IMG/VR virus record: IMGVR_UViG_3300028590_000015
Coordinates: 1-64,000 of that record
Origin: a virus
Length of the DNA: 64,000 bases
Direction: 5' to 3' (one strand)
The notes beneath the pieces were generated by a model, which was given only the letters and a program-made list of their open reading frames with translations, searched no databases and had not been told where the DNA came from. Position 1 is the first letter of the stretch. Each line of letters begins with the position of its first letter. This document shows positions 5,906-54,529 of the stretch, one piece after another. The translations under genes and the position numbers were made by a program.

Positions 5906-6123
5906 GCCTTTACCTCGGCGGTGGGGGTGTCTGGGGTGGGGATGTTGACGACGACGGTTGCCGTCTTGCGGCGCAACAGCGCGTCGTCGATGCGCAGGCT
6001 GATGGGCACGACGAGTTCGCCCGGCTCCGCACTGGCGCGCGCGCCCAAGGTGCGCACTCGGTAGTAGGGCCACCGCGCAATGCGGCAGATGGCCAGGCTA
6101 GTCTCGATGGTGCTCGTGCTCAC
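5902..6123 (-). CDS. Hypothetical small protein (73 aa)
   Basis: ATGA coupling to flanking genes. Confidence 0.5.
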   Translation of the reverse strand: MSTSTIETSLAICRIARWPYYRVRTLGARASAEPGELVVPISLRIDDALLRRKTATVVVNIPTPDTPTAEVKA

Positions 6124-14167: not shown

Positions 14168-14839
14168 TTATTCGGGTACCCACTTGCCGATCACCACACC
14201 GGTGATGGAGGCATGTCCGTTGATCTCGACATAGCGCGGCTTCCATTCTGGGTTGAGCGCCTTGAGCATCTTCCTGCCGTCCTCGACGAGGAACTGCTTG
14301 AACGTGCCTTCCTGGTGGTCATCGAGGCGCACGATCACGCGGTCGCCATGCTTGGCCTCGCGGTCGGGGTCTACGAAGATGATGTCGCCGTCGGAGTAGC
14401 TGGGGCGGCCGCCGGGGTTGTACATGCTGTCGCCGCGCACGCGCAGGCAGTACGCGCGCGGGCCGTGCTTGACGGGGCAGGGCAGCCAGTCCTCGGCCTC
14501 GCCGAGCGCGTAAGGGTCCGCGATGTCGGCCCAGCAGCCAGCCTGAATCCACGAGATCAGCGGCACGCCATCGGGGATGGTCAAGGTTTCGGTGTTGCCA
14601 CCACCCATGCTCATGCGGACTTTGGACGTGGTGATGGACGCGGGCTCAATGCCGAGCAGCTCCGACACCGTGATGCCGAGCGCCAGCGCAACCGCTTCTT
14701 GGTTTGCGCGCTTCGGGGCAGTCTTTCCGCTCTCCCACTGCTGGATGGACCCGCGTGAAACACCAATGCGGTCGGCCAGTTGCTGCTCGGTGAGCTTCAA
14801 CCTCGCGCGGTGGTGCTTGATCACGTCTTTGGTCTGCAT
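14168..14839 (-). CDS. cI: CI-like prophage repressor (HTH_XRE + S24 LexA-like peptidase domain)
   Basis: N-term HTH LTEQQLADRIGVSRGSIQQWESGK; C-term autopeptidase region with G-DSM and K motifs (VRGDSMYNPGG..IIFVDPD..HGDRVIVRL). Confidence 0.9.
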   Translation of the reverse strand: MQTKDVIKHHRARLKLTEQQLADRIGVSRGSIQQWESGKTAPKRANQEAVALALGITVSELLGIEPASITTSKVRMSMGGGNTETLTIPDGVPLISWIQAGCWADIADPYALGEAEDWLPCPVKHGPRAYCLRVRGDSMYNPGGRPSYSDGDIIFVDPDREAKHGDRVIVRLDDHQEGTFKQFLVEDGRKMLKALNPEWKPRYVEINGHASITGVVIGKWVPE

Positions 14840-14850
14840 GGCACCATGCT

Positions 14851-14866
14851 AGAGATAGATATTCTT
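14851..14866. promoter_or_regulatory. Second operator-like site AGAGATAGATATTCTT in cI-cro intergenic region
   Basis: Contains GATAGA half-site and partial dyad; overlaps the likely leftward (cI) promoter. Confidence 0.3.
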
Positions 14867-14892
14867 GCAAAGATAGAAAATCTAGCTAGAAT
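14865..14892 (+). promoter_or_regulatory. Candidate rightward promoter pR (TTGCAA-16-TAGAAT) with operator filling the spacer; predicts leaderless cro
   Basis: -10 TAGAAT ends 6 nt before the cro ATG at 14899 and there is no SD in between. Confidence 0.5.
14871..14886. promoter_or_regulatory. Operator-like dyad OR, AGATAGAAAATCTAGC (GATAGA/TCTAGC inverted half-sites)
   Basis: Near-palindrome TAGA-AAA-TCTA; the same 16-mer (1 mismatch) is embedded in the spacer of the leftward promoter at 13745-13760. Confidence 0.5.
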
Positions 14893-21154: not shown

Positions 21155-21615
21155 AGCGCCGCCGCATCAGGCACCCCGACTACCGCAACCCGGTTGCGGC
21201 CGCCATCCTGCGCGCCGGCATCCGCCGCCAGGTGCTGGAGCTGAAAACCGCCGCCGACCTGCAGGCCTGGGACGGCGCCAATGCCGCGCGCCTCGTCAAC
21301 AGCGCGGGCCGCATGGTGTTCGTGGTGGCCCACGCCGCAACGGCCTGTGGCGTGGGCGCGGACGAGCCCGACAGCCGCATCGTGCGCGGCATGGCCGAGG
21401 CCGTCGGGGATCTCGCCGCCGATGGCGACATGGAGCGCCACCGGCCTGCCATCCAGGCCGGGCTCCTGGCCATCGACCGCCTGCTGCCCCGCTGCAACGA
21501 CTGGGCCCTCGGCCTGGGCGCGCAGGAACTCGAGCGCCTGCTGGCCAGCACCGCGGGCATGGGCACCGCAGACATTCACGCCATTTTTTACCCTCAGCAG
21601 GAGACCACGCCTTGA
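21151..21615 (+). CDS. Hypothetical protein (154 aa)
   Basis: ATGA-coupled. Confidence 0.55.
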   Translation: MKRRRIRHPDYRNPVAAAILRAGIRRQVLELKTAADLQAWDGANAARLVNSAGRMVFVVAHAATACGVGADEPDSRIVRGMAEAVGDLAADGDMERHRPAIQAGLLAIDRLLPRCNDWALGLGAQELERLLASTAGMGTADIHAIFYPQQETTP

Positions 21616-21896
21616 CCCGCCCCCGCCTCAACCTCTCAGACGCCGTGGATGACCTGGCGCCGCCACCGCCGCCGTGCTTCTTGAACCGGGCTTCCTGGAA
21701 GGAGTACCTCAAGAGCGGCGCCGCGGTGCAGAACCACAAGGGTGAGCCCAAGGTGATCCTGTTGGTGGACGGTAGCCCTGCGTTCAACCACGCGCTGGAT
21801 TTCTGCTCGGACTGCAGCACCAGTCAACGCGCTTCCATGGTCAAGCAGTCCCGTTGCGACCCCGCCCACCTCAAGAAACTCACCACACCAGCATGA
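21612..21896 (+). CDS. Hypothetical protein (94 aa; TTG or internal GTG start), uncertain start
   Basis: TTGA overlap with upstream stop; contains C-x-x-C (CSDCS). Confidence 0.4.
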   Translation: MTRPRLNLSDAVDDLAPPPPPCFLNRASWKEYLKSGAAVQNHKGEPKVILLVDGSPAFNHALDFCSDCSTSQRASMVKQSRCDPAHLKKLTTPA

Positions 21897-22114
21897 CCAC
21901 CCCAGGACTTCAAGGAACCATCGAGATCGTGCGCCGCGTCGTGAAGGAGATCGGCCCGGCCCACGCGCGCGACATCGAGCGCCACCCCGAGGTGGTGAAG
22001 GCCTGCAGGTCGAGCAAGACCAAGGCTCGCCGACACATCGAGCGCCTGGTCGCGCTGGGCCACATCCGGTCCGACGGCGCCGCCCAGATGCCCAAGTTTT
22101 CAACCAAGGAGTGA
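21893..22114 (+). CDS. Hypothetical small protein (73 aa)
   Basis: Start MTTPGLQGTIEIVRRVVKEIGP; ATGA-coupled. Confidence 0.5.
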   Translation: MTTPGLQGTIEIVRRVVKEIGPAHARDIERHPEVVKACRSSKTKARRHIERLVALGHIRSDGAAQMPKFSTKE

Positions 22115-22117
22115 CCC

Positions 22118-22501
22118 ATGTTGATGAAGGGAATGAAGTTCTTCTGTGAACGCGTGCAGTTCGGCCGCGGGGTCCGCATTTACTTGGAGCAGGAAACTGG
22201 AAACGACACAGTTGCTCGAGCTGGACCGGTGAGGCTCGCTGTGTTCCCGGCGTCGTATGCTGAGACCGTGCAGGTCGATCCATTGATGGAGGTCGACCTG
22301 ACGTCAGCGCAACAACTCATGGACGAGCTCTGGCATTGCGGGTTGCGACCCAGTGAGGGCACGGGCAGCGCGGGATCGCTCGCCGCGACCGAGCGTCACC
22401 TGGCCGACATGCGCACGGTTGCGTTCAAACTGCTGAGCGAGGAGCAGTGGCTTGCCAACCAAGCGCGCGAGCGCGGTTTTCCCGTAGAGTTGAAGCCATG
22501 A
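22118..22501 (+). CDS. Hypothetical protein (127 aa)
   Basis: ORF with coupled downstream gene. Confidence 0.55.
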   Translation: MLMKGMKFFCERVQFGRGVRIYLEQETGNDTVARAGPVRLAVFPASYAETVQVDPLMEVDLTSAQQLMDELWHCGLRPSEGTGSAGSLAATERHLADMRTVAFKLLSEEQWLANQARERGFPVELKP

Positions 22502-23265
22502 CCAAAGAGCAAATCATCGACGACCTGCTGCAGCGCAGCAAGGCCGGCATCCAGCGCGAGACCTTGGAATCGGCGTTTGAGGCTGGAGCGGCGACCGCGC
22601 GCGCTCAGAAGGCGGCTGCCGGTCGGGTGACGTTCGAGCTCGTCGTGTTGGCGTTCGTGGCGCTCATGGCGATCGCGACGGTGGCGGTGTACATCGCGAA
22701 CTTTGTTGGGCAGCCTGTCGCATCAGACGGAGGTGCCTGGGGCCAGTTCGGCGACTACATCGGCGGTTTGTTGAACCCCACCGTGGCCTTTGCGGCGCTG
22801 CTCCTCCTGTATCGCTCCATCACGCTCCAAAAGAAAGAACTCGCGGACACGAGGGACGTGCTGGCCCAACAATCAGAAAGCGCACGGTTGCAGGCCGAAC
22901 TTTCCGGGTACACCGCAGCCATCAGTGCATGTCAGGATCAGGTGCAAATTCTGCAGGGCCAGCGCCAGTTCTACATTCAACAGGTGACGAATCATGCGGG
23001 TCATGGAACCCCCATCTTCGAGGTGGATGGAACTGGCCTCAGCCTGGTGCCAGCGCTGGATGCGCTGGGCAAGTTGGAGCAGGCTATCGCAGAGGAAATG
23101 CGGTCGAAGGCGTTTTACGAGAGACGATTGCGCAAGACGTTGGGCGAGCAAGGTCTTGGAGGGCACCACTCAGAGGACAACCAGAAGGTCGAGGCACCGT
23201 TGCTCGTCAACGAGTCGCAGTTCTTTCCGCCTGAAGTGAAGCAGACTCCTGCCGGCAAGGCCTGA
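22498..23265 (+). CDS. Membrane protein, paralog A of duplicated pair (2 TM + cytoplasmic coiled coil; WGQFGDYIGG..NP motif)
   Basis: TM1 FELVVLAFVALMAIATVAVYI, loop WGQFGDYIGGLLNPTVAFAALLLLY (TM2), then coiled coil; paralogous to 24157-24738. Confidence 0.65.
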   Translation: MTKEQIIDDLLQRSKAGIQRETLESAFEAGAATARAQKAAAGRVTFELVVLAFVALMAIATVAVYIANFVGQPVASDGGAWGQFGDYIGGLLNPTVAFAALLLLYRSITLQKKELADTRDVLAQQSESARLQAELSGYTAAISACQDQVQILQGQRQFYIQQVTNHAGHGTPIFEVDGTGLSLVPALDALGKLEQAIAEEMRSKAFYERRLRKTLGEQGLGGHHSEDNQKVEAPLLVNESQFFPPEVKQTPAGKA

Positions 23266-23516
23266 TGCTCGCCATACACGTGGCCCCGCTTTCACCGTTG
23301 ACATTCGGAGAACGTGGCCTACGATTCACGTGCGCCCGCTGGCACCGACGGGTGGAAGGAAATCGGAGCGCCACATAACACCCCGCCGAGAGAGGCACTA
23401 GGGGTTTTGGCGAACCCGGGGCTTCGGCCCCGGGCGAGCCTCTTACCTCGAAGGCCGTGCTGCCCCCAAGCTGTGAATCGCAAGAAGTCTCCCCGGCGGG
23501 GGGGCGTAGGAAAACA

Positions 23517-23540
23517 AGCCCGCATCGCGCGGGCTTTTTC
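23517..23540. terminator. Bidirectional rho-independent terminator
   Basis: GCCCGCATCGCGCGGGC stem followed by TTTTT on plus and TTGTTTT on minus; lies between convergent genes. Confidence 0.6.
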
Positions 23541-23895
23541 ACGGCTTGCGGCGGATCAACTCCACAGGGCCAGGACCGCGATAGATCTCCTGCTGGATGA
23601 TGCCCTTGTGGCGCACGACCACCTCCTTGCCCGAGGACTTGTCGACGACGTAGTAGTCCAGTGGCAGGTGCAGGAACATGTCGAGGGTCTTGCCCCGGTT
23701 GCTTGGGTCGGGGTGCCGCAGGTAGGTCCGCTCTCCCCGCGGGCTCTGTTCCGTGGACGCTTCCCACATGGCAAGTCGTTCTTTGTCCTCGGCGGTGGGC
23801 TTGAAGCCTGGCGGGAACGGTGGGAAGTCGGTGTTCAGCCAGAACTCTGGCTCGTCCATGTCGTTGTCGTCTTCGTTTTCCTCGTCGCGTGACAT
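23539..23895 (-). CDS. Small protein, paralog A (C-terminal LRHP...YRGPGPVE motif)
   Basis: 118 aa; acidic N-terminus; C-terminus RHPDPSNRGKTLDMFLHLPLDYYVV...YRGPGPVELIRRKP is paralogous to the 23906-24118 product; AGGAG SD. Confidence 0.6.
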   Translation of the reverse strand: MSRDEENEDDNDMDEPEFWLNTDFPPFPPGFKPTAEDKERLAMWEASTEQSPRGERTYLRHPDPSNRGKTLDMFLHLPLDYYVVDKSSGKEVVVRHKGIIQQEIYRGPGPVELIRRKP

Positions 23896-23905
23896 CGTGG
23901 ATCTC

Positions 23906-24118
23906 CTAGCAGGGGGCGGGTGACCTGACCACTTCGACAGGCCCAGGCCCAGCGTACACCGTTGTGCCGGTTTCCGTCTCGATCACCACCCACCAGTCGG
24001 CCTCGGTGCGGTGCACCTTGTAGGCCTCCGGTGCCAGGGGCAGCACCTCCTCGCCGAGCATCCGGCGCGGCGCAAGGATTGGGTGCCGCAGCAGCGTGGG
24101 GTGGGCTTGCGCGCTCAT
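23906..24118 (-). CDS. Small protein, paralog B (LRHP...YAGPGPVE motif)
   Basis: 70 aa MSAQAHPTLLRHPILAPRRMLGEEVLPLAPEAYKV...YAGPGPVEVVRSP; tandem with and upstream of paralog A. Confidence 0.55.
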   Translation of the reverse strand: MSAQAHPTLLRHPILAPRRMLGEEVLPLAPEAYKVHRTEADWWVVIETETGTTVYAGPGPVEVVRSPAPC

Positions 24119-24156
24119 GCGAGTATTCTTGCTGCTATCCAATACGAGGGATGACT

Positions 24157-24738
24157 ATGTCGATCAAAAAGCCAAAGATTTCCTGGCGGTGGAGCATCGC
24201 CAAAGAAGATGTCGTGCTTGCTGTAGCCGTGCTTTTCGTGGTGGCCGTTGGTGGCCCGCTGTTTAAGCGCTTCTTCACCAGCGACGCCTACACATTCCCT
24301 GAACAATGGGGCCAAATGGGCGATTTCGTGGGTGGGTTCGCCAATCCGGTTGTAGCGCTCGCAGCTCTGTTCTTGTTGTGGCTGTCGATAAAAATCCAAC
24401 GACATGAACTCCGCGAGGCTCATGAGTCGCTGAGGCGTCAGGCTGAGAGCGCGAGCGCGTCCGTCGAGATTGCGGGCTACACAGCGGCAATCAATGCAGC
24501 GGTGGCGCAGGTGGAAATCCATCAAACGCACATCACCTATCTGATGACGCAGATACACAGCGGCCAAATTGGTGCCGGCATTTTGGGCATGACTGGCGAT
24601 GGCTACTCGCGGCAGGAGGCATTCACGAAAATCACCGAGCTCCATGCGAAGGTGTCAGTCTTGATGGAAGAACAAGACTATTTTTCTAAGCGACTCAAGT
24701 TGACTTTGAGGGCCATGGGCCACAGTCAAATCGACTGA
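24157..24738 (+). CDS. Membrane protein, paralog B of duplicated pair
   Basis: WGQMGDFVGGFANPVVALAALFLLW then ...SASVEIAGYTAAINAAVAQVEIH, paralleling paralog A ...AELSGYTAAISACQDQVQIL. Confidence 0.65.
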   Translation: MSIKKPKISWRWSIAKEDVVLAVAVLFVVAVGGPLFKRFFTSDAYTFPEQWGQMGDFVGGFANPVVALAALFLLWLSIKIQRHELREAHESLRRQAESASASVEIAGYTAAINAAVAQVEIHQTHITYLMTQIHSGQIGAGILGMTGDGYSRQEAFTKITELHAKVSVLMEEQDYFSKRLKLTLRAMGHSQID

Positions 24739-24748
24739 GGAGTGAGGA

Positions 24749-25495
24749 ATGTGCAACATCTACGGCTCGTTGGACGAAGACCAGCTCGAACTATTCCTTG
24801 GGCTGGATGACGCGCTTTCCTGGGAGCAGCCGACGTGGGCCGAGCCCATCGTCGCCCCGCTCAAGCCGGGGGTGTTCGTGGCCGGCGGCCCGGATCGCCT
24901 CCGCGTGCTGGTGGGCCAGTGGGGAATGATCCCGCCGGACTCCGAGGACCGCGTGCCGCGCGCCAAACCCAAGCCGGGCCAGAAGGTCGGCACTCGCCTG
25001 AGCACCAACAACGCGCGCCGCGAGCGCATGAAGACGGCGTGGACGTTCCGGCGCGCCTGGGCGCGTGGTCAGCGCTGCCTCATTCCGGCCGCTTGGTACG
25101 ACGAGCCCTATTGGGGCATCAGCCATGCAGACCCGATGGCGGCCACCTTCAACACTTGGTGGCGCTTCCGCCGCGCCGATGGTGAGCCCTGGATGCTGGC
25201 TGGTCTGTGGGACGAGTGGACCGACCCGCACACGGGCGAGGTGGTGCTGAACTACACGATGGTGACCCAGAACTGCGACGGCCACCCGGTGCTGGCCCTT
25301 ATGCACAAGCCCGATCCGAAGCTGCCGCCTGACAAGCAGGACAAGCGCGCTGTGGTGCCCATCGAGCGGGCAGACTGGTCCACGTGGCTTCGTGGTGGTG
25401 CCGAAGAGGCCGAGAGCCTGATTCGCGTGCCACCCGTCGAGACCTTGAATCATGGGCCTGCAGATGCAGGGCGCACCGATCGGCTGCCCGTATAG
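24749..25495 (+). CDS. SRAP (SOS-response-associated peptidase, YedK/DUF159) family protein
   Basis: N-term MCNIYG (catalytic Cys2) and overall SRAP-like length and composition. Confidence 0.8.
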   Translation: MCNIYGSLDEDQLELFLGLDDALSWEQPTWAEPIVAPLKPGVFVAGGPDRLRVLVGQWGMIPPDSEDRVPRAKPKPGQKVGTRLSTNNARRERMKTAWTFRRAWARGQRCLIPAAWYDEPYWGISHADPMAATFNTWWRFRRADGEPWMLAGLWDEWTDPHTGEVVLNYTMVTQNCDGHPVLALMHKPDPKLPPDKQDKRAVVPIERADWSTWLRGGAEEAESLIRVPPVETLNHGPADAGRTDRLPV

Positions 25496-25525
25496 GCGTA
25501 CTGCGTGGCCTCGAAGCGAGGCTCG

Positions 25526-25993
25526 TCACTCACGCATGGCCAAGTGCGGCGCGAAGCGGTGATCGACCTCGGCCTGCCGATCCTTGAACCAATCGCGCAT
25601 GCGGTCGTATCCGGGAGCCGGGGGCGTGTAGTCCTCGGTCTCGTTTTCCTGCTGGTCGGCCAACTCCGCCATGAGTTTCCTGATGTTGACCCAGATCTTC
25701 TCGTCGATGTACTTTCCGATGTCGTCGTCGAACAGCCAGCGTGCCCCACGGGTGGCGAGCAGAAATTCTTCCAGGTCCGGGGCCAGAAGGTAGCCCTGGC
25801 GGTTCACCTTCGCGATGGTTTCTACGACAGCGCGATAGATGACGTAGCGCCGGTCGAATAGATCCAGCCGCAGCTTGTTGCGGGCAGTGCGCGCTTGGCG
25901 CCAGGCGATGTAGATACCGAAGCCGGCAATTGTGGGGGTGAGTAGCGCGGCCAGGACGGTTAGCCACATGGGGGTACTCGGGAAGGTCATCAT
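25526..25993 (-). CDS. Membrane-anchored hypothetical protein (155 aa)
   Basis: N-terminal TM (WLTVLAALLTPTIAGFGIYIAW); GGAGG SD; divergent from the 26057 gene. Confidence 0.6.
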   Translation of the reverse strand: MMTFPSTPMWLTVLAALLTPTIAGFGIYIAWRQARTARNKLRLDLFDRRYVIYRAVVETIAKVNRQGYLLAPDLEEFLLATRGARWLFDDDIGKYIDEKIWVNIRKLMAELADQQENETEDYTPPAPGYDRMRDWFKDRQAEVDHRFAPHLAMRE

Positions 25994-26036
25994 CTCCTCC
26001 GTGGTTGTGTAAAGTCGCCATCGTACAGAGCGTGTG

Positions 26037-26052
26037 CTGTATATTTATCCAG
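26037..26052. promoter_or_regulatory. LexA-box-like site CTGTATATTTATCCAG (CTGT-N8-ACAG class, 1 mismatch)
   Basis: In the 63-nt divergent promoter region, 5 nt upstream of the 26057 ATG; resembles the E. coli-type SOS box TACTGTATATATATACAGTA. Confidence 0.45.
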
Positions 26053-26056
26053 TATC

Positions 26057-26449
26057 ATGCTCGCAACCGTCTACCGCACCCGTGACCGGGGCATCCGCCT
26101 TCCCAGGCCGCACTCGCCCGTGACCGGCGACCTGCTGCTGGAGGTGCAGACACGCGGGGGCGAATCCATGCAGGTTGCCAGCCTCATGGGGGACAGCGGC
26201 AAGGTGCAGATGCTGCCGACCCTGTTCAAGGCGCGCGTCCTGCGCGTCACGGCCAACGGCTTGGTGATCGCTGGCAAGGAGCCGCTCACGCGCGGCCAGC
26301 AGAAGTCCAAGGTCGAGTTCAAGCCTCAGACCTGGTGGGCATTCATCCACACCGATAGAGGCATCTACCGCTACGACGGCAACGATCCGCTGGACTTCAT
26401 GGCGGATGAGGCCGTCCTTGCGCGCGGCGGTCGCAGCACAGGGCCGTAG
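26057..26449 (+). CDS. Hypothetical protein (130 aa), possibly SOS-regulated
   Basis: ORF immediately downstream of the LexA-like box; no recognisable domain. Confidence 0.55.
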   Translation: MLATVYRTRDRGIRLPRPHSPVTGDLLLEVQTRGGESMQVASLMGDSGKVQMLPTLFKARVLRVTANGLVIAGKEPLTRGQQKSKVEFKPQTWWAFIHTDRGIYRYDGNDPLDFMADEAVLARGGRSTGP

Positions 26450-26461
26450 CCCGCGCGCGCT

Positions 26462-26477
26462 CCGTTGACTCCGAGAG
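26462..26477 (+). promoter_or_regulatory. Conserved late-region 16-mer CCGTTGACTCCGAGAG (copy 1; TTGACT -35-like)
   Basis: Same 16-mer (CCGTTGACTCCGAGGG) at 36274-36289 and 49986-50001, all intergenic and upstream of plus-strand late genes. Confidence 0.55.
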
Positions 26478-26543
26478 AAATCCACTTTGAATAGCCAGTG
26501 AGTCCCGCCGGGGCTCGCTTGTCTCCTCAAGGGATTGAGTTGC

Positions 26544-26572
26544 GCCCAGCCTTAACCGGCTGGGCTCTTTTT
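26544..26572 (+). terminator. Strong intrinsic terminator 14 nt upstream of terS (tR'-like)
   Basis: GCCCAGCC-TTAACC-GGCTGGGC perfect 8-bp stem followed by TCTTTTT. Confidence 0.7.
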
Positions 26573-26585
26573 CGGAGTTCTCGCC

Positions 26586-27287
26586 ATGGCCCCCAAGTCG
26601 CGCAAGAGTGCGGCACCACCAGCACCCCCCGCCAAGCAGAAAACTGACTGGGATGCTGTTGAGCGCGATTACCGGACCGGCCGCTTCACCCTGCGTGAAC
26701 TCACCGCCAAGCACGGCCCCACTCACACCACCATCGCCCGCCGCGCCGAGCGCGAAGGCTGGACCAAAGACCTCACCGAGGCCATCCGCCAAGCCACCAA
26801 CGCCAAGCTGGTGCAACAGTCCGTGCAACAGGTGGTGCAACAGGAATGCACCAACGCGCACCAAGCTGTAACGGAATCGGTGCTCGTCGCGGCCGAGATG
26901 AACAAGGACATCATCCTGGGCCACCGCAGCGACCTCAAGGCCGCGCGCACCGTGGCAGTTTCGCTGCTCGACGAGCTGAGCAAGGCCGCCATGCTGGCCG
27001 CCGACGAAGACGCCCTCATCGACATCCTGGCCGGGAAGCACGCCGAGCCGCAGGACTTGGCCAGGGCCCGGTCGCTGGTCCAGAAGGCGCTGTCCGTGAA
27101 CTCGCGCATCAGCAGCGTCAAGGCGCTGGCCGAGGCCTTCACAAAACTCCACGACGGCGAGCGGCGCGCCTTCAACATCGGCGACGAACCCCCGAAAACT
27201 CCGGGCGGCGAGCTGGCGGAGTTTCTCAATGACCTGTCAGCGCGCGGCAGCCGCCTGCCGATCGCAGGTGCTGGGAGCGCCGCGTGA
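26586..27287 (+). CDS. terS: Terminase small subunit
   Basis: HTH-like RFTLRELTAKHGPTHTTIARRAEREGW near N-terminus; directly precedes and is ATGA-coupled to terL. Confidence 0.7.
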   Translation: MAPKSRKSAAPPAPPAKQKTDWDAVERDYRTGRFTLRELTAKHGPTHTTIARRAEREGWTKDLTEAIRQATNAKLVQQSVQQVVQQECTNAHQAVTESVLVAAEMNKDIILGHRSDLKAARTVAVSLLDELSKAAMLAADEDALIDILAGKHAEPQDLARARSLVQKALSVNSRISSVKALAEAFTKLHDGERRAFNIGDEPPKTPGGELAEFLNDLSARGSRLPIAGAGSAA

Positions 27288-33393: not shown

Positions 33394-33585
33394 ATGGCCC
33401 AACCGCGTTCGGGTTTGGTGCTGGAAATGCGTGCTGGCGAGATGATCACATTGCGCGGCCCGAATGGTGTTGACTCCGAAAAAATCGTGCTAATACTCGA
33501 ACAGAAGGATGGGCGAAAGGCCCGTCTGCGCATCCAGGCCGGGCCTGCCGTCAAGGTGGGCAAGCCGGAGAAGCAGCCGGGCTGA
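33394..33585 (+). CDS. Small protein with CsrA-like sequence pattern (tentative)
   Basis: LVLEMRAGEMITL...KIVLILEQKDGRKARLRIQAGPAVKV vs CsrA LILTRRVGETLMI...[25 protein letters not shown]. Confidence 0.4.
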   Translation: MAQPRSGLVLEMRAGEMITLRGPNGVDSEKIVLILEQKDGRKARLRIQAGPAVKVGKPEKQPG

Positions 33586-33597
33586 CGCCGTCCTCGT

Positions 33598-33623
33598 GGC
33601 CCTGGCTTCGCCGGGGGTTTTGT
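33598..33623 (+). terminator. Putative intrinsic terminator/attenuator upstream of major capsid gene
   Basis: CCTGGC-TTC-GCCGGG stem (one G:T wobble) followed by GGTTTT. Confidence 0.4.
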
Positions 33624-33665
33624 CGGCTCGCAGGAGTGAGTCAGTGCTTATTCAAGGAGTAATTC

Positions 33666-35265: not shown

Positions 35266-35666
35266 TGGGCAAGCGAGGCCCCAAGCCTGGCTTCAAGCAG
35301 GAGCGCGCGAAAGCCGCTGCTGCTGACACAGCCCAGGCTCCGAATGCCGCTGCGAAGAAACGCGCAGCGGCTTCCCCCATTTCAGACGCCCAGCAGCCCT
35401 CTGCGCCTGCTGGGCCGGTCGCTACGGTCACACAGGCCGCCCCCGTCGTGTCGCCGCCTCCGCCAGCGGCACCGCCGAAGGCCTCCAAGGCGGTGCTCAG
35501 TGCCAGCGACCGGGAGAACCCCAACAAGCTCAGCGGCAAGCCGCTGCGCGAGCTGGCCCACCGTCGCGGGCTGGCCAAGTCGTCGCTGCCTACCATGAGC
35601 GACGAGAAGATCCGCGAGCAGCTCCGGTACATGACCCACCGTCAGTACGACGATGCTGTGGACTGA
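35265..35666 (+). CDS. Hypothetical protein (133 aa), Ala/Pro-rich
   Basis: ATGA-coupled. Confidence 0.5.
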   Translation: MGKRGPKPGFKQERAKAAAADTAQAPNAAAKKRAAASPISDAQQPSAPAGPVATVTQAAPVVSPPPPAAPPKASKAVLSASDRENPNKLSGKPLRELAHRRGLAKSSLPTMSDEKIREQLRYMTHRQYDDAVD

Positions 35667-36258
35667 CTTTCAACCCTTCGTGATGCCCTACGTGGTGGGT
35701 TGCCCCACCCCGATCCTGGTGCATCACGCTCGCCTCGTGTCCATCGACTGGTGCCGCAAGACACTGGCCCACACCATGGATCTCGACCCGGTGCTCACCG
35801 ACGGCACCGAAGCGGTGGAGATGGAGCCCGAGAGCAAAACCCAGATCGTGAAGGTCATGGCCGTGGCAGTCGGCGGCAAAGACTGGGAGCTGGTCGATCC
35901 ACGTCGCGGCCAGCAGTTCGTGCGCAGCCAGCACCCTGGCGATTTCTGCTTCACACGGGACAACAAGATCCTCACCGTCTACGGCATCCAGCCGGCCGAC
36001 ACCGAGGTCGTGGTCACGGCCGCGCTCATGCCGGACATGCTGCGGGCCACTGGCCTGAGCGATGACCTGGCCAGCCAGTACGCCGACGACATCGCCAAGG
36101 GCATCATCGCCTCGATCATGAGGCTGCCAGCGTTCGCTGACCCCGGCGGCGCGGTCATGCATCAGGCCATGTACGAGAGTCGGCGCACCACGATCGCCGC
36201 CAAGATCTCGCGCGGCCTCGTCGCCGCAAAACGCCGCAACCCTGTCAGTTTCATCTGA
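35653..36258 (+). CDS. Hypothetical structural protein (201 aa)
   Basis: Overlaps previous gene by 14 nt. Confidence 0.55.
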   Translation: MLWTDFQPFVMPYVVGCPTPILVHHARLVSIDWCRKTLAHTMDLDPVLTDGTEAVEMEPESKTQIVKVMAVAVGGKDWELVDPRRGQQFVRSQHPGDFCFTRDNKILTVYGIQPADTEVVVTAALMPDMLRATGLSDDLASQYADDIAKGIIASIMRLPAFADPGGAVMHQAMYESRRTTIAAKISRGLVAAKRRNPVSFI

Positions 36259-36273: not shown

Positions 36274-36289
36274 CCGTTGACTCCGAGGG
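36274..36289 (+). promoter_or_regulatory. Conserved late-region 16-mer CCGTTGACTCCGAGGG (copy 2)
   Basis: Followed by small hairpin CCTGC-ATACC-GCAGG overlapping the SD of the 36329 gene. Confidence 0.55.
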
Positions 36290-36328
36290 GTCTGGCCTGA
36301 GCATTCCTGCATACCGCAGGAGCGCTTT

Positions 36329-36991
36329 GTGTCAACCACCCTCAAGTCCGTTTTGGAGCGCGTCGTAGGAACGCTCAACGACAACGCCAGCGACACCTGG
36401 ACGTTGCAGGACTTGGTGCGCTACGCCAATGATGGCGCTCGCGACATGCACACGCTCCGGCCCGACCTGTTCAACGTCGAGCAGGAACTGGCGCTGGTCG
36501 CCGGCACCAGGCAGACGCTGCCTACGCGCGGCTCGAAGCTCATCAGCATCACGCACAACACCGTCGGCGACATGCGTGCGGTGACCCTCGTTCAGCGAGT
36601 GATGTTGGACGCCCAGTACCCGGGCTGGCGCAGAGCGTTCCCTGAGATCGAGGTCGAGCACTACATGTACGACGAGCGCCAGCCCAAGGTGTTCGAGGTG
36701 TACCCACCGGCCAGGGTCGGCGCGAAGCTGCAGGTGGAGTTCGCCCTGATCCCTGTGGACATGCCAATCCCCGCTGACAACACGCCGCTGGCATCCATTT
36801 CTGGCGACATCAACGTGCCCGACCTGCAGGCCACGACGTTGCAGCACTACATCTGCTCGCGCTGCTACGCCGAGGGCAGCGAGGACGGCCACCTCGTCCT
36901 CGCCAAGACCTTCCTTTCCCTCTTCGCGTCCGACCTGGGCGTGGAAATCGCAGCTACGAAAGCCGTGGCGCCCACCGCAACCTCACCCTGA
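36329..36991 (+). CDS. Hypothetical structural protein (220 aa, GTG start)
   Basis: GCAGGAG SD upstream of GTG. Confidence 0.55.
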   Translation: MSTTLKSVLERVVGTLNDNASDTWTLQDLVRYANDGARDMHTLRPDLFNVEQELALVAGTRQTLPTRGSKLISITHNTVGDMRAVTLVQRVMLDAQYPGWRRAFPEIEVEHYMYDERQPKVFEVYPPARVGAKLQVEFALIPVDMPIPADNTPLASISGDINVPDLQATTLQHYICSRCYAEGSEDGHLVLAKTFLSLFASDLGVEIAATKAVAPTATSP

Positions 36992-39864: not shown

Positions 39865-41892
39865 ATGCCAACTCAAACCGGCTTCATTGTCCCCACGCCG
39901 TTCCCGGACACGGCCTCTCCTGGCGCGCTTCCGCTCGGTGCGGATGTGCCGGCCGGCGCCAACCTGTGTGTGGCGCTCCTCAGTGGCAGCAACGACGCGG
40001 GCGTCACACTCAACAGCCTCGCTTCAAACTTCACGACTGCCGGCTTCGTCCTCACGAACCACCCCGGTTTCACCGGGTACGGTGTGCAGTTCGGCGTGGC
40101 GCAGGTGAACTCATCCGGCTCCGGGAAGACATTGACCCCGGTCTGGTCGACGACGCTGGGCTACGGCCCAACCTGCACGCTGCTGTTCTTCAATGTGTCG
40201 GACCCGGCCGCCTGCATCGCCGAACTCAGCGCCGAGGGCACGCGCCTGCAGTTGGACAATTCCTCGGACACCACGCCGAAGGTTTTGAACGTCAGCGCCG
40301 ACAGCGTCGCTGACCTCGTATACGCGCACGACTGCAAGTACACGACCTCCAGCGTCATCCCTGGCCTGGACGCGGCATACACCAATGTCACGACCCAGGC
40401 GGACCTGCGAGGCGCTACGACCCGCACCTCGCGCAAGACCGCCGTCACGGTGGGCACGAACTCAGGCACCACCACGGATACGGACTACAGCGCCCTGGCT
40501 GTCTTCGTGATTCGTGACATCGGGGGCGGCGGTGGTGACACGACCGATCCGACGCTCACCGGCTCAATTACCGAGGTCTCCAAGACCAGCGCCAGTATCT
40601 CGATCTCATGGCCAGCGGGGGCAGACAATGTAGGCGTCACTTCATATGAAGTGAGCCGCGACGCAGGCTCAAGCTGGACAGATGTGGGCAATGTTCTATC
40701 CCACACCTTCAGTGGTTTGAGCGCATCCACCGCATACGCGATCCGCGTTCGCGCAAAAGACGCTGCAGGTCTCACGAGCACCCCACCTCTCGCCACCTCA
40801 ATCACGACCAGCGCCGCAGGGGACGTGACTCTCCCGACGATGAATGGCGCCATCACCGTCGGCCAGAAAACGAGCGGCAGCATCTCGATCAGCTACCCGG
40901 CGGCGTCCGACAACGTGGGTGTCACCGGCTACGAGGTGAGCAGCAACGGTGGTTCCTCGTGGCTGGACAACGGCCTGGTCCTGTCCTACACCTTCCTCGG
41001 TCTGGCCGCGGTCACCAGCTACAACCTCCGCGTCCGGGCCTACGACGGGGCGGGCAATCGCGCCGCCACGCCGCTGGCTGCGACCAGCAGCACCTACGGC
41101 AACGGTGCAACCGGGCAGTACATCCTCGACCACCCTGAATCCTTCATGGCGCAGTGCGTCGAAGCCGGCGATGAGGCAGCTTGGTTTGAATGGGAGTTGA
41201 TCACGGGCCCGGCAACCGGCACCTGGGTCGAGGGCCCTTATGCCGACGGCACCGGGGTTTTCGAGGGGCCGGATGCCACCTCCATGGTTATCCGCTTGCG
41301 CAAGAACGGCGTGGTGGTCGGCGATTTCACCGTCTACCTCTACGACCCTGGCCACTACGCCACGCCGGCCAACAGCGTGTCGGGCGCGACTTCGACAGCT
41401 TCCAACGGCGTCCAGACGTATCGCGCGACGCCGGCCGGTGCGAGGGCAGGGGCAACGGTTTCCAGCACCACGGCGGTGCAGGTACAGCTCGCGACCCCTG
41501 CCGACGCCGTGGGCGGCGCCACCGTTGCCCCCTCGAATGCGGTGCAGACCTATCGAGCGACGCCGGCCAACTGTATGGCCGGGGCGACGGCCACTGCAAC
41601 CAGCGCAGGAGGGAGCGGAGAACATCAGGCCACGCCCGCCAATTCGGTGTCGGGAGCCACTGTCAGCAGCTCGAACGCGGTGCAGACGCACCTGGCCACC
41701 TCGGCGGATTCCGTTTCTGGCGCTACCAGCAGCTCAAGCCAAGCACTCCAGACGTTCCAGGCAACCCCTGCCGACTGCGGTGCCGGGGCGACTGTTCAAG
41801 CCACGCGAGCCTTCGTGCTGAGCCGCGCCCCGTCGAGCGACAGGGCGTACTACCCCGTTTCGCGCAACCGCGCGTATTTCCCGTCGCGTTGA
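39865..41892 (+). CDS. Tail fibre / receptor-binding-like protein with two fibronectin type III domains and C-terminal 22-aa tandem repeats
   Basis: Two segments ...SISISWPAG(A)DNVGVT(S/G)YEVS...AY..RVRA.D.AGN fit the FN3 pattern; C-terminus has seven repeats (ATPANSVSGATSTASNGVQTYR-like). Confidence 0.7.
   Translation: MPTQTGFIVPTPFPDTASPGALPLGADVPAGANLCVALLSGSNDAGVTLNSLASNFTTAGFVLTNHPGFTGYGVQFGVAQVNSSGSGKTLTPVWSTTLGYGPTCTLLFFNVSDPAACIAELSAEGTRLQLDNSSDTTPKVLNVSADSVADLVYAHDCKYTTSSVIPGLDAAYTNVTTQADLRGATTRTSRKTAVTVGTNSGTTTDTDYSALAVFVIRDIGGGGGDTTDPTLTGSITEVSKTSASISISWPAGADNVGVTSYEVSRDAGSSWTDVGNVLSHTFSGLSASTAYAIRVRAKDAAGLTSTPPLATSITTSAAGDVTLPTMNGAITVGQKTSGSISISYPAASDNVGVTGYEVSSNGGSSWLDNGLVLSYTFLGLAAVTSYNLRVRAYDGAGNRAATPLAATSSTYGNGATGQYILDHPESFMAQCVEAGDEAAWFEWELITGPATGTWVEGPYADGTGVFEGPDATSMVIRLRKNGVVVGDFTVYLYDPGHYATPANSVSGATSTASNGVQTYRATPAGARAGATVSSTTAVQVQLATPADAVGGATVAPSNAVQTYRATPANCMAGATATATSAGGSGEHQATPANSVSGATVSSSNAVQTHLATSADSVSGATSSSSQALQTFQATPADCGAGATVQATRAFVLSRAPSSDRAYYPVSRNRAYFPSR
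41359..41817 (+). repeat. Imperfect tandem repeat, about 7 x 66 nt, inside the fibre gene
   Basis: Units start GC(C/G)ACGCC(G/C)GCC... and end ...CAGAC(G)TATCG / CAGACGCACCTG. Confidence 0.7.
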
Positions 41893-47765: not shown

Positions 47766-49790
47766 ATGACCGTTCTGGCCATCAAGGGATTCCGTGGCGC
47801 TGTGCCTCGGTACAGCTCACGCCTGCTGCAGCCCAACCAGGCGCAGCGGGCCTGGAACTGTCGCATCACATCCGGGCGCCTGGACCCGATCAAGGGTCCG
47901 GGCCTCGTCTTTTCTTCCACATTGGCGTCGGACATCCGCACCATGTATCGCTACCGCCACTTCGTTGGTGGAGCGCCGCTGGACAACTGGCTGATCTGGG
48001 CCTCCGATGTGGACGTGCAGCTTTCGCCGCTCGCCAACGACGAGCGAGGCGTTTTCTATTTCACATCCGAGACCTTCGAGCCTCGGGTGTCCTCCTACGC
48101 GCACGCGATCGCGGGCGCTGTCTATCCGAACGCATGGTTTGCGCTCGGGGTTCCCAGCCCGACGGTCGCACCAACTGTGACGCCGTCTGGAGGCACTGCC
48201 GCCGACGAGGAGCGCTCCTACGCCATCACCTTCGCTACTGCCTGGGGCGAAGAGTCGGGGCCGAGCCCGGCATCTGCGCTCGCCACCGGGAAGCCCGACG
48301 GCACATGGGCCCTCAGCAACCTGCAGACGGCACCGCCAAACGGCGGCGCCATCGTGGGCGCGGTGGCCGACAGCCCTGTGGATGGCCAGGTCACGGTGGA
48401 GCTGGATACCGTGTTCGGGCTGGCCGCCCACGAGTCCATCACCGTCAGTGGGGTGGGGGGCATGACCAGCCTGAACACTACGCATCGAATTCTGTCGATC
48501 AACGTGGCCACCAAGAAGGTGGTGGTGAAGCTCGATACGGCCCAGACCTACACCAGCGGTGGCGCCTGGGCTCGCGAGAGCCCGTTGAACACCACGGGCA
48601 TGGTGAAGCGGATCTACCGCACGGCTGGCACGAACCCGGCATTCCTGTTCGCGGCTGAGATCCCTGTCGCGGATACGACCTACAACGACACGGTGCCGGG
48701 CACGATGCTGGGTGAGGTGCTGCCCACCCTTCTGACGCTTCCGCCGCCGAAAAACCTCACCTGCCTGACGCGGCTGCCCAATGGGTGCATGGTCGGCCTG
48801 GCTGGCAATGAGCTGTGCCTGAGTGACCCATATCGTCCGTATTCCTGGCCCATCGGCAATCGCTACAGCTTTTCGGGGCGTGGAGTGGCGCTGTGCGTGG
48901 CTGGAACTTCGGTGATCGTGCTCACCGACAGCTACCCCATCCTTTTTACCGGGAGCGACCCCGAGGTTATGAGCCCGAGCACCATGGAGACTTATGCGCC
49001 GTGCGTGTCCAAGCGCGGCTCGGTCAACGTGGGCGGGGGCAGCATCTACCCCAGCTTCGACGGCCTTTGGCTGGCCACTCCGGCCGGTGTGAAGAAGCTG
49101 ACCCAGAACCTCTACCGCGACAAGGAGTGGGGCGAGCTCAACCCCGTCACGTTCGATGCGGCCTTTCACGACGGCCAGTATTACGCTCAGTACAGCGCCA
49201 ACGACGCGCGCGCACGCATCTGGGTGCTTGATGTGTCGGAGCCGGACAGCACGACCGAGATCGATGAGCAGGTTGGCGCGCTCTACCGGAACGAGTACGA
49301 CGGGCTGCTCTACGTCGCCAAGGGCGCCAAGGTGTTCCAGTGGGATGCCGACAACGGCATGCGCTACGAGTCGGACTGGATGAGCAGGGTGAACCAGTTG
49401 GCCAAGCCTACGACGTTCAACTGCGCCCAGGTGTTCGCTGATTTCAGCGACATCGTGCCGATCGACACAGCGCAGCAGGAGGCGAATGCAGCCTTGCAGC
49501 TCACGCCCATGATGGGCGGTGGGCAGATGGCCGGGCTGGAGATCGGGGTCGCCGAGGTCAATGGCTCGCTGCTGACCCCCATCGTGGTGCAGACCCAGCG
49601 CAAGGTGCAGTTCACCCTCTACCTCAAGGACGTGCCGATCTTCACGAAGTCGGTCACCAGCCAGAAGCCGTTTCGGCTGCCCACGGGGTACAAGGCCGAG
49701 CTGTTCGCAGTGCAGTTGTCGGCCTCGGTGCCCACCTACTCGGTGGCGATGGCAACCTCGATGGAGGAACTCAAGCAGGTGGCGCCATGA
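47766..49790 (+). CDS. Large virion structural protein (674 aa)
   Basis: Size, Thr/Ser/Gly-rich beta composition, SD GGGAG. Confidence 0.6.
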   Translation: MTVLAIKGFRGAVPRYSSRLLQPNQAQRAWNCRITSGRLDPIKGPGLVFSSTLASDIRTMYRYRHFVGGAPLDNWLIWASDVDVQLSPLANDERGVFYFTSETFEPRVSSYAHAIAGAVYPNAWFALGVPSPTVAPTVTPSGGTAADEERSYAITFATAWGEESGPSPASALATGKPDGTWALSNLQTAPPNGGAIVGAVADSPVDGQVTVELDTVFGLAAHESITVSGVGGMTSLNTTHRILSINVATKKVVVKLDTAQTYTSGGAWARESPLNTTGMVKRIYRTAGTNPAFLFAAEIPVADTTYNDTVPGTMLGEVLPTLLTLPPPKNLTCLTRLPNGCMVGLAGNELCLSDPYRPYSWPIGNRYSFSGRGVALCVAGTSVIVLTDSYPILFTGSDPEVMSPSTMETYAPCVSKRGSVNVGGGSIYPSFDGLWLATPAGVKKLTQNLYRDKEWGELNPVTFDAAFHDGQYYAQYSANDARARIWVLDVSEPDSTTEIDEQVGALYRNEYDGLLYVAKGAKVFQWDADNGMRYESDWMSRVNQLAKPTTFNCAQVFADFSDIVPIDTAQQEANAALQLTPMMGGGQMAGLEIGVAEVNGSLLTPIVVQTQRKVQFTLYLKDVPIFTKSVTSQKPFRLPTGYKAELFAVQLSASVPTYSVAMATSMEELKQVAP

Positions 49791-49978
49791 AACCAGCCCT
49801 GGAACATCCGAAAACTGGCGCCGTGGCCCTCGATCGTTTTTGCTCGAACGTGAAGCAGATCCTTGACGACATCACCGGCCAGTCTCGGAAACTCAAGCGG
49901 TTGCAGCCGCTTCCCGCCGATGCGACCTTGCCGCAGGTGATCGAGCGGTTGAACGAGGTGCTGTCCCGGCTGCAGTAG
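49787..49978 (+). CDS. Hypothetical small protein (63 aa)
   Basis: ATGA-coupled. Confidence 0.45.
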   Translation: MKPALEHPKTGAVALDRFCSNVKQILDDITGQSRKLKRLQPLPADATLPQVIERLNEVLSRLQ

Positions 49979-49985
49979 GCCGGGG

Positions 49986-50001
49986 CCGTTGACTCCGAGG
50001 G
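49986..50001 (+). promoter_or_regulatory. Conserved late-region 16-mer CCGTTGACTCCGAGGG (copy 3)
   Basis: Followed by two hairpins (CTTCCGGGGC..GCCCGAAGG; GGCCCAC-G-GTGGGCC) then the GTG of the 50055 gene. Confidence 0.55.
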
Positions 50002-50054
50002 CTTCCGGGGCAAAGTTGCCCGAAGGCCCACGGTGGGCCTCTTCGAGGGCCGCT

Positions 50055-50654
50055 GTGACCGTTTCCGCTATTCGTCAGGCACTGGTCGAGCACCTTGGGA
50101 AGGTGCTCACGCCGGACATCGCCATGGCTCTGGAAATGGCTGCTGTGGCCCCGGAAGACCGAAGCATCGACCCCCGCAGTTTCGGTCAACACCAGCATGG
50201 GGACTACACGATCGCCGCGGAGCGCTTCGCAAGCATCGTGGACGAGCTGCACCCGCTGCACGAGGTCCACTGGCTTGAAACCGAGCATTACCGACACGGC
50301 CTTGCGCTGCGGCCGGACTATGCCGGGATGGCCGCCCTGGAGCGCAACGGCCGCGCCATCCAGTTCACTGTGCGCCACGCTGGCCAGCTCGTTGGGAACC
50401 TGCGCGTCTACCTGGGCACGAGCTTGCACACGCAGACCCCCTATGCGAGCGAAGACACCTTGTTTCTGCTGCCCGAGCACCGGGGCGGTTTCCTCGTGCT
50501 CGCGCTCATCAAGTTTGCCGAGGACGCCTTGCGCGCCATCGGGATCGACGAGTTCCGCGTGAACAGCAAGTTGGTCAACAACGCCGACGTGCTCATGCGC
50601 CGGCGCCGCTACACCCCTGCGGCGCTTCAGTTCGTCAAATTCTTCCAGGAGTGA
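50055..50654 (+). CDS. GNAT-fold acetyltransferase-like protein (tentative; start uncertain)
   Basis: LFLLPEHRGGFLVLALIKFAEDALRAIGIDEF resembles GNAT motif A. Confidence 0.45.
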   Translation: MTVSAIRQALVEHLGKVLTPDIAMALEMAAVAPEDRSIDPRSFGQHQHGDYTIAAERFASIVDELHPLHEVHWLETEHYRHGLALRPDYAGMAALERNGRAIQFTVRHAGQLVGNLRVYLGTSLHTQTPYASEDTLFLLPEHRGGFLVLALIKFAEDALRAIGIDEFRVNSKLVNNADVLMRRRRYTPAALQFVKFFQE

Positions 50655-50658
50655 AGCC

Positions 50659-51450: not shown

Positions 51451-51461
51451 TCGGAGCCGCC

Positions 51462-54517: not shown

Positions 54518-54529
54518 TCGGACGCTCAC

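Follow-up and report, generated by a model that had tools for sequence, protein, structure and literature searches.

The first 64,000 nucleotides (nt) of the IMG/VR virus record IMGVR_UViG_3300028590_000015 (the window, below, is this whole stretch) carry four copies of a short conserved element, each at the head of a block of late genes. Comparison with related phages indicates that the 16-mer to which three of these copies belong is a predicted extended -35 box of a late promoter specific to this phage family. The reading favoured here, with a probability of about 0.6, is that the four sites are late promoters switched on by the products of two small co-inherited genes, which encode a protein of 94 amino acids (aa) and a 73-aa winged-helix protein. 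The assignment of the four sites to promoters of the sigma-70 type, predicted from their conserved geometry, is made with confidence, and the binding of the box by the winged-helix protein is proposed with less confidence than that.

A first-pass annotation, made from the letters of the window and a list of its open reading frames (ORFs), had described the 16-mer CCGTTGACTCCGAG(A/G)G in three plus-strand copies upstream of late genes, and the pattern search of the window found these copies exactly there, at 26462–26477 (copy 1), 36274–36289 (copy 2) and 49986–50001 (copy 3), all on the plus strand and with no mismatches. The exhaustive search proposed together with that description was run with the pattern CCGTTGACTCCGAGRG; it added only two matches, at 6519 (plus strand) and 56556 (minus strand), each with three mismatches and probably due to chance. 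The observed number of 16-mers was attained in none of 100 shuffles. Comparison with the fetched related loci showed the conserved unit to be the 11-mer GTTGACTCCGA, and a fourth exact instance of it (copy 4) was found on the plus strand at 33469–33479, with flanks unlike those of copies 1–3. The plus strand of the window contains seven TTGACT hexamers, four of which are followed by CCGA. The statement that all copies are intergenic holds for the three 16-mers, which follow the ORFs 26057–26449, 35653–36258 and 49787–49978, but not for the added core copy, which lies within a 63-aa ORF. Copy 1 (core 26464–26474) heads the block of the terS, terL, portal and scaffold genes, and copy 4 heads the capsid block; copy 2 (core from 36276) heads the adaptor/tail block, the first gene of which (36329–36991) is SU10-adaptor-like, and copy 3 (core from 49988) heads a block of genes for ejected and polyvalent proteins that begins at about 50055 with a GTG start codon. 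The idea that the repeat is a regulatory site and not a generic repeat was thus borne out, the element being of a promoter type and standing before late-gene blocks.

The relatives were gathered through the portal protein (58–73% identity), homologs of the 73-aa protein and a profile of this protein, which gave a set of 55 related phage loci with a total length of 610 kilobases (kb). The 10-mer TTGACTCCGA occurs 93 times in this set, against about one occurrence expected by chance, and 92 of the 93 occurrences are located on the late-gene strand; the sole minus-strand copy (locus L274, position 83) is near a contig end. The sites are syntenic: they precede terS, the capsid gene and the adaptor gene, with additional ones further downstream in some loci. 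A relative has three to five sites per genome, and the window has four. Three loci contain two copies of the motif between the regulator genes and terS, around an inserted small ORF: L238 (7056 and 7467), L266 (280 and 884) and L274 (the minus-strand copy at 83, and 819). The last base of the box varies (C or G) in L032, L259 and L245. Scans of viral and genome contigs with the exact 14-mer returned single chance matches in unrelated contigs and one true relative, L032. A full-text literature search with the 11-mer returned human primer sequences only, and no paper on the motif or on the proteins of the two genes was found.

The promoter geometry was derived from a profile of 40 non-redundant sites aligned on the 10-mer alone, the -10 element not having been used for finding the sites. 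The hexamer TTGACT, which matches the -35 consensus TTGACA in five positions of six, is present at all four sites of the window and at all sites of the family. The base 21 nt after it (+27 of the profile) is T in 40/40 sites; A is found at +23 in 26/40 (G in 10, which are sites of the terS type) and at +25 in 27/40, whereas a control of 236 chance occurrences of this 10-mer, taken from the unrelated contigs of the 14-mer scans, gave 27% for the T, 25% for A at +23 and 10% for A at +25. The spacer is fixed at 16 nt, which gives the geometry TTGACT-N16-nAnAaT or, in full form, (c)GTTGACTCCGA followed by 12 nt and nAnAaT; the fixed -10 element and the 16-nt spacer together make this a sigma-70-type promoter geometry. 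The -35 and -10 hexamers of the window are located at 26465–26470 and 26487–26492 (TTGAAT, with a predicted start at about 26498) for copy 1, at 33470–33475 and 33492–33497 (AATACT) for copy 4, at 36277–36282 and 36299–36304 (GAGCAT) for copy 2 and at 49989–49994 and 50011–50016 (CAAAGT) for copy 3, and all four -10 hexamers end in the T that is invariant in the family. A consensus scanner independently called the site at 33470 as TTGACT-16-AATACT, with a score of 9/12. In the profile, G at -1 and C at -2 upstream of the hexamer are moderately conserved and nothing is conserved beyond -2; the spacer is partly A/T-rich, and no position from +28 to +44 exceeds 0.45 bits, a result still compatible with a pause element at a variable position. 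The flanks, the spacer and the -10 region diverge freely, while the CCGA and the G preceding the hexamer stay fixed.

The first-pass annotation had read the -10 elements 17 nt downstream, as TGAATA, AGCATT and AAAGTT, a register one base too far downstream; at 16 nt the invariant T appears. Its description of these elements as poor does not hold as it was read, since the real -10 element has an invariant T and mostly conserved A's, and yet they are still weak. The dependence on a regulator of the phage that was suggested there is probable.

The capsid-proximal copy is informative, since it is embedded in a coding sequence. The ORF 33394–33585 (plus strand) lies between the scaffold-like and capsid genes and encodes a conserved small protein of 63 aa (63–69 aa in the family), which is CsrA-like by eye; the Pfam search with it gave no match at E ≤ 0.01, the CsrA model included. 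CsrA homologs have been reported, at the level of PSI-BLAST, in the related phages Bcep22, BcepIL02 and GP4 (PMC7366521). In the window, the box is read as the codons GTT GAC TCC GAA (V D S E) and the -10 element AATACT coincides with the rare codons CTA ATA. Among the relatives the box is kept as (G/A/C)TT GAC TCC GA(A/G), even where the proteins are only about 40% identical; in these divergent versions its first codon shifts to ATT or CTT, so that the residue is V, I or L, and TTGACTCCGA is retained. All three wobble bases of the box are invariant in the relatives, and adjacent synonymous sites vary. The box is not kept in the small ORF of those relatives that do not have the two regulator genes. 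Its retention despite the change of residue, and its absence where the regulator genes are lacking, indicate that selection at the embedded box acts on the DNA and not on the protein.

The leader of the capsid gene has conserved features of its own. A terminator-like hairpin with a U-run (33600–33623, plus strand; CCCTGGC-ttc-GCCGGGG followed by GTTTTGT), conserved in the relatives, separates the small ORF from the capsid gene and is located about 100 nt downstream of the embedded promoter; it is followed by a conserved hairpin with AGGAG in the loop (33625–33642, plus strand), similar to a CsrA site. The order within 33394–33665 is, thus, the CsrA-like ORF, the terminator-like hairpin, the AGGAG-loop hairpin and the Shine-Dalgarno sequence AAGGAG of the capsid gene, and the same arrangement is seen in relatives, e.g., at 6090–6371 of L239 and 16621–16881 of L257. 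This arrangement suggests that translation of the major capsid gene may be under a control of the CsrA type.

The two candidate regulator genes form a cassette on the plus strand. Its first gene (21612–21896) encodes the 94-aa protein with four invariant cysteines (C22, C65, C68 and C82); the second (21893–22114) overlaps the first, is translationally coupled to it and encodes the 73-aa winged-helix protein, the candidate binder of the motif, with a nearly invariant putative recognition helix CRSSKtKARRhIeRL. No other ORF located between NinB and terS is conserved in the relatives. All loci with the 73-aa gene whose sequence extends far enough (44/44) contain the motif downstream of it. The motif starts from -3 to +18 nt relative to the stop codon of the winged-helix gene in about half of them, and in the remaining loci an insertion of 75–4351 nt precedes the motif, the window having the 4351-nt one; conversely, the structural relatives without the cassette (L246–248, L250–254) do not contain the motif. 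The winged-helix variant of L032, which is 45% identical, is still paired with the same box. The first-pass annotation had named the genes within 21893–22501 as candidate regulators; the gene 21893–22114 is the winged-helix gene co-occurring with the motif in every relative, and the second candidate, 22118–22501, is not conserved.

Profile searches found about 145 clusters of the winged-helix protein, all at least 58% identical, plus the L032 variant, and at least 81 clusters of the 94-aa protein, in uncultured temperate phages of a Burkholderiales type; among the hosts of homologs of the cassette proteins, only Acidovorax sp. JG5 is named. Searches of both proteins against Pfam, PHROGs, NCBIfam and the sequences of the PDB revealed no match, including none to Q, Ogr/Delta or Mor/C proteins, and an hhalign comparison of both families with Escherichia coli RpoE, for which an approximate RpoE sequence was used, gave no signal. 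The 73-aa protein is modelled, with a predicted local distance difference test (pLDDT) score of 90, as a minimal winged helix, a class of fold common among proteins that bind DNA; the best PDB matches of the model are the DNA-binding domains of the MecI/BlaI, MarR/SlyA, ArsR and Fur types, an outcome of a generic kind. The 94-aa protein matched no known family or fold, and there was no Q structure among the fold matches of the cassette proteins.

The mechanism that we propose is as follows. The host RNA polymerase (RNAP) with sigma-70 would most likely use TTGACT and the -10 elements, and transcription would start at the predicted sites; the four extra bases CCGA, which abut the -35 hexamer, would most likely be recognised by a phage regulator, for which the 73-aa winged-helix protein is the best candidate; this protein would probably act with its coupled 94-aa partner of a zinc type. 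The cassette is located at the end of the lytic early-right operon and outside the immunity region, and in the relatives it stands directly before the first late promoter; from this position, which is that of lambda Q and of RinA, we infer a delayed-early product that would turn on all late promoters at once. The gene order, from Cro over NinB to the 94-aa and 73-aa genes, the promoter and terS, corresponds to that of lambda Q with pR' and of RinA with terS. The pair may activate initiation rather than prevent termination.

The leader that follows copy 1 is structured. A 10-base-pair (bp) hairpin, AGTGAGTCCC-GCC-GGGGCTCGCT, is located at the predicted 5' end of the transcript (26497–26519, plus strand), and the leader continues (26520–26573, plus strand) with a CU-rich motif UGUCUCCUC, a small hairpin and an intrinsic terminator, GCCCAGCC-ttaacc-GGCTGGGC followed by TCTTTTT (26544–26572, plus strand). 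This terminator has an 8-bp stem with seven GC pairs and a 6-nt loop, was the top plus-strand terminator in a scan of 20–40 kb and lies wholly downstream of the predicted start, 45–75 nt after it; it ends 14 nt before the ATG codon of terS, the terminase small subunit gene and the first gene of the first late block (26586–27287, plus strand; phrog_1206, E 2e-44). The perfect 8-bp stem and U-run noted earlier at this place were, therefore, confirmed. The window scan revealed no promoter-like site between copy 1 and 33470; with a terminator after copy 1 and no promoter until 33470, expression of the terS, terL, portal and scaffold genes requires read-through. Compared with shuffled sequences, the stretches after copies 1, 2 and 3 fold more stably (z = -3.5, -3.35 and -2.9, respectively), in agreement with the earlier remark on hairpin structure after each copy, and no convincing terminator was found downstream of copies 2 and 3. 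In many relatives and at copy 2 of the window a hairpin spans the -10 element and the start, the predicted start being in the loop.

The ribosome-binding region of terS contains CGGAGTT (26573–26579, plus strand), an inverted copy of the core GACTCCG with six of seven positions identical. The inverted CGGAGTC is found at the terS ribosome-binding site of L259 (about 11310), L267 (about 3617), L272 (about 918), L273 (about 7533) and L294 (about 11259), and 6/7 copies are found there in L032 and L290; in four lineages the inverted 7-mer comes immediately after the U-run of a terminator, and the order of promoter, terminator, CGGAGTC and terS ATG recurs in L267, L272 and L294. The inverted 7-mer is about 16-fold enriched 30–160 nt downstream of motif sites, a statistic inflated by shared ancestry. 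GGAG followed by T occurs at 15/24 motif-associated starts compared to 57/249 other starts (Fisher p = 1e-4, uncorrected for relatedness). The group of L239, L249, L257 and L262 has another arrangement, where the terS terminator, CCCCGTTGCAATTGGCA-gat-TGTCAATTCAACGGGG followed by TTTTCTC, overlaps the spacer and the -10 element, and the predicted start is in its loop; since such a terminator would stop only read-through from the regulator genes, it looks like an insulation from early transcription rather than a target of a Q-type protein. The Rfam search with the copy-1 leader gave a match to RF02278 over the full model length with 31.6 bits, below the gathering score of 50; the leader also weakly matches anti-hemB. 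The search of the whole window at the gathering score returned no Rfam family, and no tRNA was found in it.

Several points weigh against activation of these promoters by the pair. The co-occurrence of motif and cassette could reflect the common descent of a module and not direct recognition, the winged-helix family is too tight for a test of covariation between protein and site, and the invariance of CCGA is partly due to construction, as the sites were collected with an exact 9- or 10-mer. A near-consensus -35 hexamer is atypical of activator-dependent promoters. The -10 elements are weak, the terS-type sites being TG(C/T/G)AAT, without the usual A at -11. In the window, L267, L272 and L294 a strong terminator is located entirely after the predicted terS-proximal start, and a plain activator of initiation does not explain the terminators after the terS- and capsid-proximal promoters.

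These terminators argue for a promoter-loaded processive antitermination, where the pair would bind the box, join RNAP and pass terminators as a two-piece, non-homologous analogue of Q, which we regard as unlikely, yet as the leading alternative to activation. Read-through of the strong terminator after copy 1 is needed; the promoter–terminator–CGGAGTC–terS order recurs in the three lineages named above; the conserved terminator-like hairpin follows the capsid-proximal promoter as well, and the regulator genes occupy the position of Q. The lambda Q-binding element is located in the upstream part of the spacer, and the extra conserved bases of the box have the same place. However, neither protein has a match in Pfam, PHROGs or NCBIfam and no Q is found among the fold matches; there are four promoters per genome, where one would suffice for a processive antiterminator; no position from +28 to +44 is conserved, which leaves no fixed sigma-dependent pause element; a convincing terminator is lacking after copies 2 and 3; and the terS terminator of the L239 type overlaps the promoter and would, therefore, be absent from late transcripts. 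Leaky termination could, moreover, supply the small amounts of terminase and portal that are required. The designation of the copy-1 region as a classic lambda pR'-tR'/Q layout is, thus, correct as to the terminator between copy 1 and terS, which recurs in other lineages, and goes too far as to the rest, given the lack of a Q-family protein, the number of promoters and the lack of a conserved pause element. The inverted copies point to another possibility, rather improbable in our estimation, that ACTCCG acts mainly at the RNA level, where in upstream transcripts it would form an anti-Shine-Dalgarno sequence or a hairpin arm pairing with the next gene's ribosome-binding region or with its terminator; translation of the first gene of each block, or read-through into it, could then be tied to initiation at its own promoter, possibly as an adjunct to promoter function. 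The inverted CGGAGTC/CGGAGTT at the terS ribosome-binding site and its enrichment, the excess of GGAGT at motif-associated starts and the hairpins across the -10 element and start fit this possibility, but it leaves the invariant T and the A's of the -10 element and TTGA unexplained; the motif never varies to compensate, the downstream partner alone varying; at the capsid and adaptor sites no more than 5 nt are complementary; and the shared ancestry of the loci inflates the statistics.

That the sites are ordinary promoters of the host sigma-70, used without any phage factor, with the 11-mer kept by descent or by copying within the genome, appears very unlikely. TTGACT-N16-nAnAaT is a legitimate sigma-70 layout and the binding of a regulator is only predicted, but CCGA and the preceding G are outside the sigma-70 consensus and are still fixed while their surroundings diverge, and sigma-70 is not known to read the CCGA bases. 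The motif is absent from the structural relatives without the cassette, and unregulated promoters of terS and capsid genes would be harmful in a prophage whose CI-type repressor acts elsewhere. Mycobacteriophage stoperators are asymmetric sites aligned with the direction of transcription, their core being similar to a -35 element, and the box shares with them its asymmetry, its -35-like hexamer and its constant orientation relative to transcription; a role as such a repressor or roadblock site, silencing late genes in the lysogen, has the lowest probability among the readings considered, since each genome has only three to five sites, each at the head of a block and with a -10 element at a fixed distance, the immunity repressor is of the CI/S24 type with unrelated AT-rich operators, and the winged-helix gene is located at the end of the lytic early operon, outside the immunity region. 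A pac site or a recombination joint was also considered and rejected, as the fixed geometry of the -10 element and the capsid and adaptor copies would be unexplained. Beyond activation of the late promoters by the pair, a bolder version can be put forward tentatively, and we consider it doubtful: a two-subunit factor formed by the 94-aa and 73-aa proteins on the extended -35 box would re-programme the host RNAP, either as a split non-homologous analogue of Q, taking the polymerase past the terminators after the terS- and capsid-proximal promoters, or by a sigma appropriation similar to that of MotA/AsiA, and the box, when transcribed from upstream, would serve as an anti-Shine-Dalgarno sequence or hairpin arm silencing read-through expression.

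The phage itself combines a lambdoid early region with a podophage-type late region. The window has a guanine–cytosine (GC) content of about 65%; the early region contains a CI-like S24 repressor gene (14168–14839, minus strand), a Cro-like gene, methyltransferase and primosomal genes and NinB, and the late region encodes a P22-type portal, an SU10 adaptor and an internal virion protein. The nearest named phages are Burkholderia phage BcepIL02 and the Ralstonia phage GP4/Gervaise group, with about 35% identity of the portal protein, and a megablast search of 26–36.5 kb against GenBank phages revealed no match. The intergenic region between CI and Cro (14845–14892) contains the AT-rich operator-like repeats AGATAGATATTCTTGC and AGATAGAAAATCTAGC. 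These operators, AT-rich AGATAGAnAnTCT repeats, are unrelated in sequence to the motif, which argues against the control of the motif by the immunity repressor, and CI and Cro were, for this reason, rejected as its binders. The block downstream of copy 3 (50055–63772) is accessory and Bcep22-like, with an acetyltransferase-like gene, a virion protein gene, a 601-aa ORF, a methyltransferase–PAPS-reductase fusion (51462–52877) and a 3080-aa polyvalent protein with LPD37, LPD5 and LPD1 domains. Imperfect direct repeats with a 66-nt period are found at 41347–41800, inside a tail-type gene (39865–41892) that encodes a 675-aa protein containing Fn3.

In this phage only, the cassette is separated from copy 1 by a lower-GC moron island (22118–26449, about 62% GC), which is absent from the relatives. 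The island includes genes of paralogous membrane proteins (22501–23265 and about 24158–24738; phrog_8999), a pair of minus-strand genes (23539–23895 and 23906–24142), a small-RNA-like locus, a gene of the SOS-response-associated peptidase (SRAP; 24749–25495) and a minus-strand membrane-like ORF (25526–25993). The small-RNA-like locus (23298–23540, plus strand) has a promoter close to consensus, TTGACA-16-TACGAT (10/12), which has the 8-mer CCGTTGAC in common with the 16-mer; after the promoter come about 210 nt without a convincing ORF and then a strong terminator (about 23516–23540). The 3' part of the locus weakly matches rsmX (RF02144; 21.6 bits, gathering score 56, E 0.04), a curious match in view of the CsrA-like ORF of this phage. 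The sequence CTGTATATTTATCCAG at 26032–26047 resembles a LexA/SOS box (CTGT-N8-ACAG, one mismatch) and directly precedes the ORF 26057–26449, which encodes a 130-aa protein without a family match and adjoins copy 1 upstream. The product of this ORF may be an SOS-induced moron or an antirepressor.

Late-gene switches are known in detail for few model phages, namely lambda Q, Mu C, P2 Ogr, T4 gp55/33 and RinA, and the loci analysed here offer a crisp cis element, GTTGACTCCGA-N12-nAnAaT, together with a specific candidate regulator pair without known relatives. Their design is unusual in that a late promoter is kept inside a coding sequence through the choice of codons, promoters are nested in terminators or hairpins and an inverted copy of the promoter box is located at the terS ribosome-binding site. 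If the pair is an antiterminator or a sigma-appropriation system, it would represent a new mechanistic class; as a plain activator the pair would still amount to a new family, with which many prophages could be annotated better.

The comparison with the lambda Q/pR'-tR' system, to which the systems of P22 gp23, phage 82 and phage 21 are also referred, shows candidate regulator genes that likewise end the early-right operon directly before the first late promoter, a -35 TTGACT with extra specific bases in the spacer, and a terminator within about 50–100 nt, before the first late gene, in the window and in three lineages. Unlike in lambda, two small putative proteins (94 and 73 aa) would replace one regulator and have no relation in sequence or fold to any Q family, there are four promoters instead of one, there is no conserved pause element, and the terminator of many relatives is not placed after the promoter but overlaps with it. 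The copy-1 leader resembles, in addition, the toxic small RNA of Betaproteobacteria (RF02278), with the CU-rich UGUCUCCUC identical in 9/9 positions and followed in the same order by a short hairpin and a terminator; the middle hairpin is, however, much shorter in the leader, which stands before terS and is not a free-standing gene.

As for activators, the small C protein of phage Mu acts on about four dispersed late promoters through one short element, with the host sigma-70 polymerase (PMC2582627). The systems of Mu C, P2 Ogr and P4 Delta are similar to that of the window in having several late promoters with a common site and a small regulator, putative here and zinc-binding in Ogr. The late promoters of Mu and P2, in contrast, have no -35 element and an activator site upstream, at about -35 to -55, whereas here the -35 hexamer is near-consensus with the specific bases just downstream of it, nothing is conserved upstream of -2, and there is no homology to Mor/C or Ogr_Delta. 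The gene of RinA is located directly upstream of terS, and RinA acts on the promoter before terS (PMC3152322). The RinA/ArpU regulators of Gram-positive temperate phages and the cassette thus share a location upstream of terS and its promoter, but RinA belongs to another protein family and another host group, and controls one late operon promoter, whereas the box is repeated here before the capsid, adaptor and accessory blocks.

The winged-helix activators of the PhoB/OmpR class, which occupy the -35 region, and the MotA/AsiA system provide examples of an activator box near -30, used with sigma region 4 or replacing it, as might be the case in the window. In the sigma appropriation by MotA and AsiA of phage T4, a small co-factor and a DNA-binding protein form a pair. 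In contrast to both, the -35 hexamer is intact here, the two proteins are far smaller and have no sequence relationship to these activators, and the contact with sigma is hypothetical. The gene layout is like that of the Q, C, Ogr and RinA switches, but membership in each of these groups is contradicted by the lack of homology to any of their proteins, by the intact -35 element, by specific bases located downstream of this element instead of upstream or by the presence of several promoters instead of one, and the comparison as a whole points to a new late-gene switch and not to a copy of the lambda Q system.

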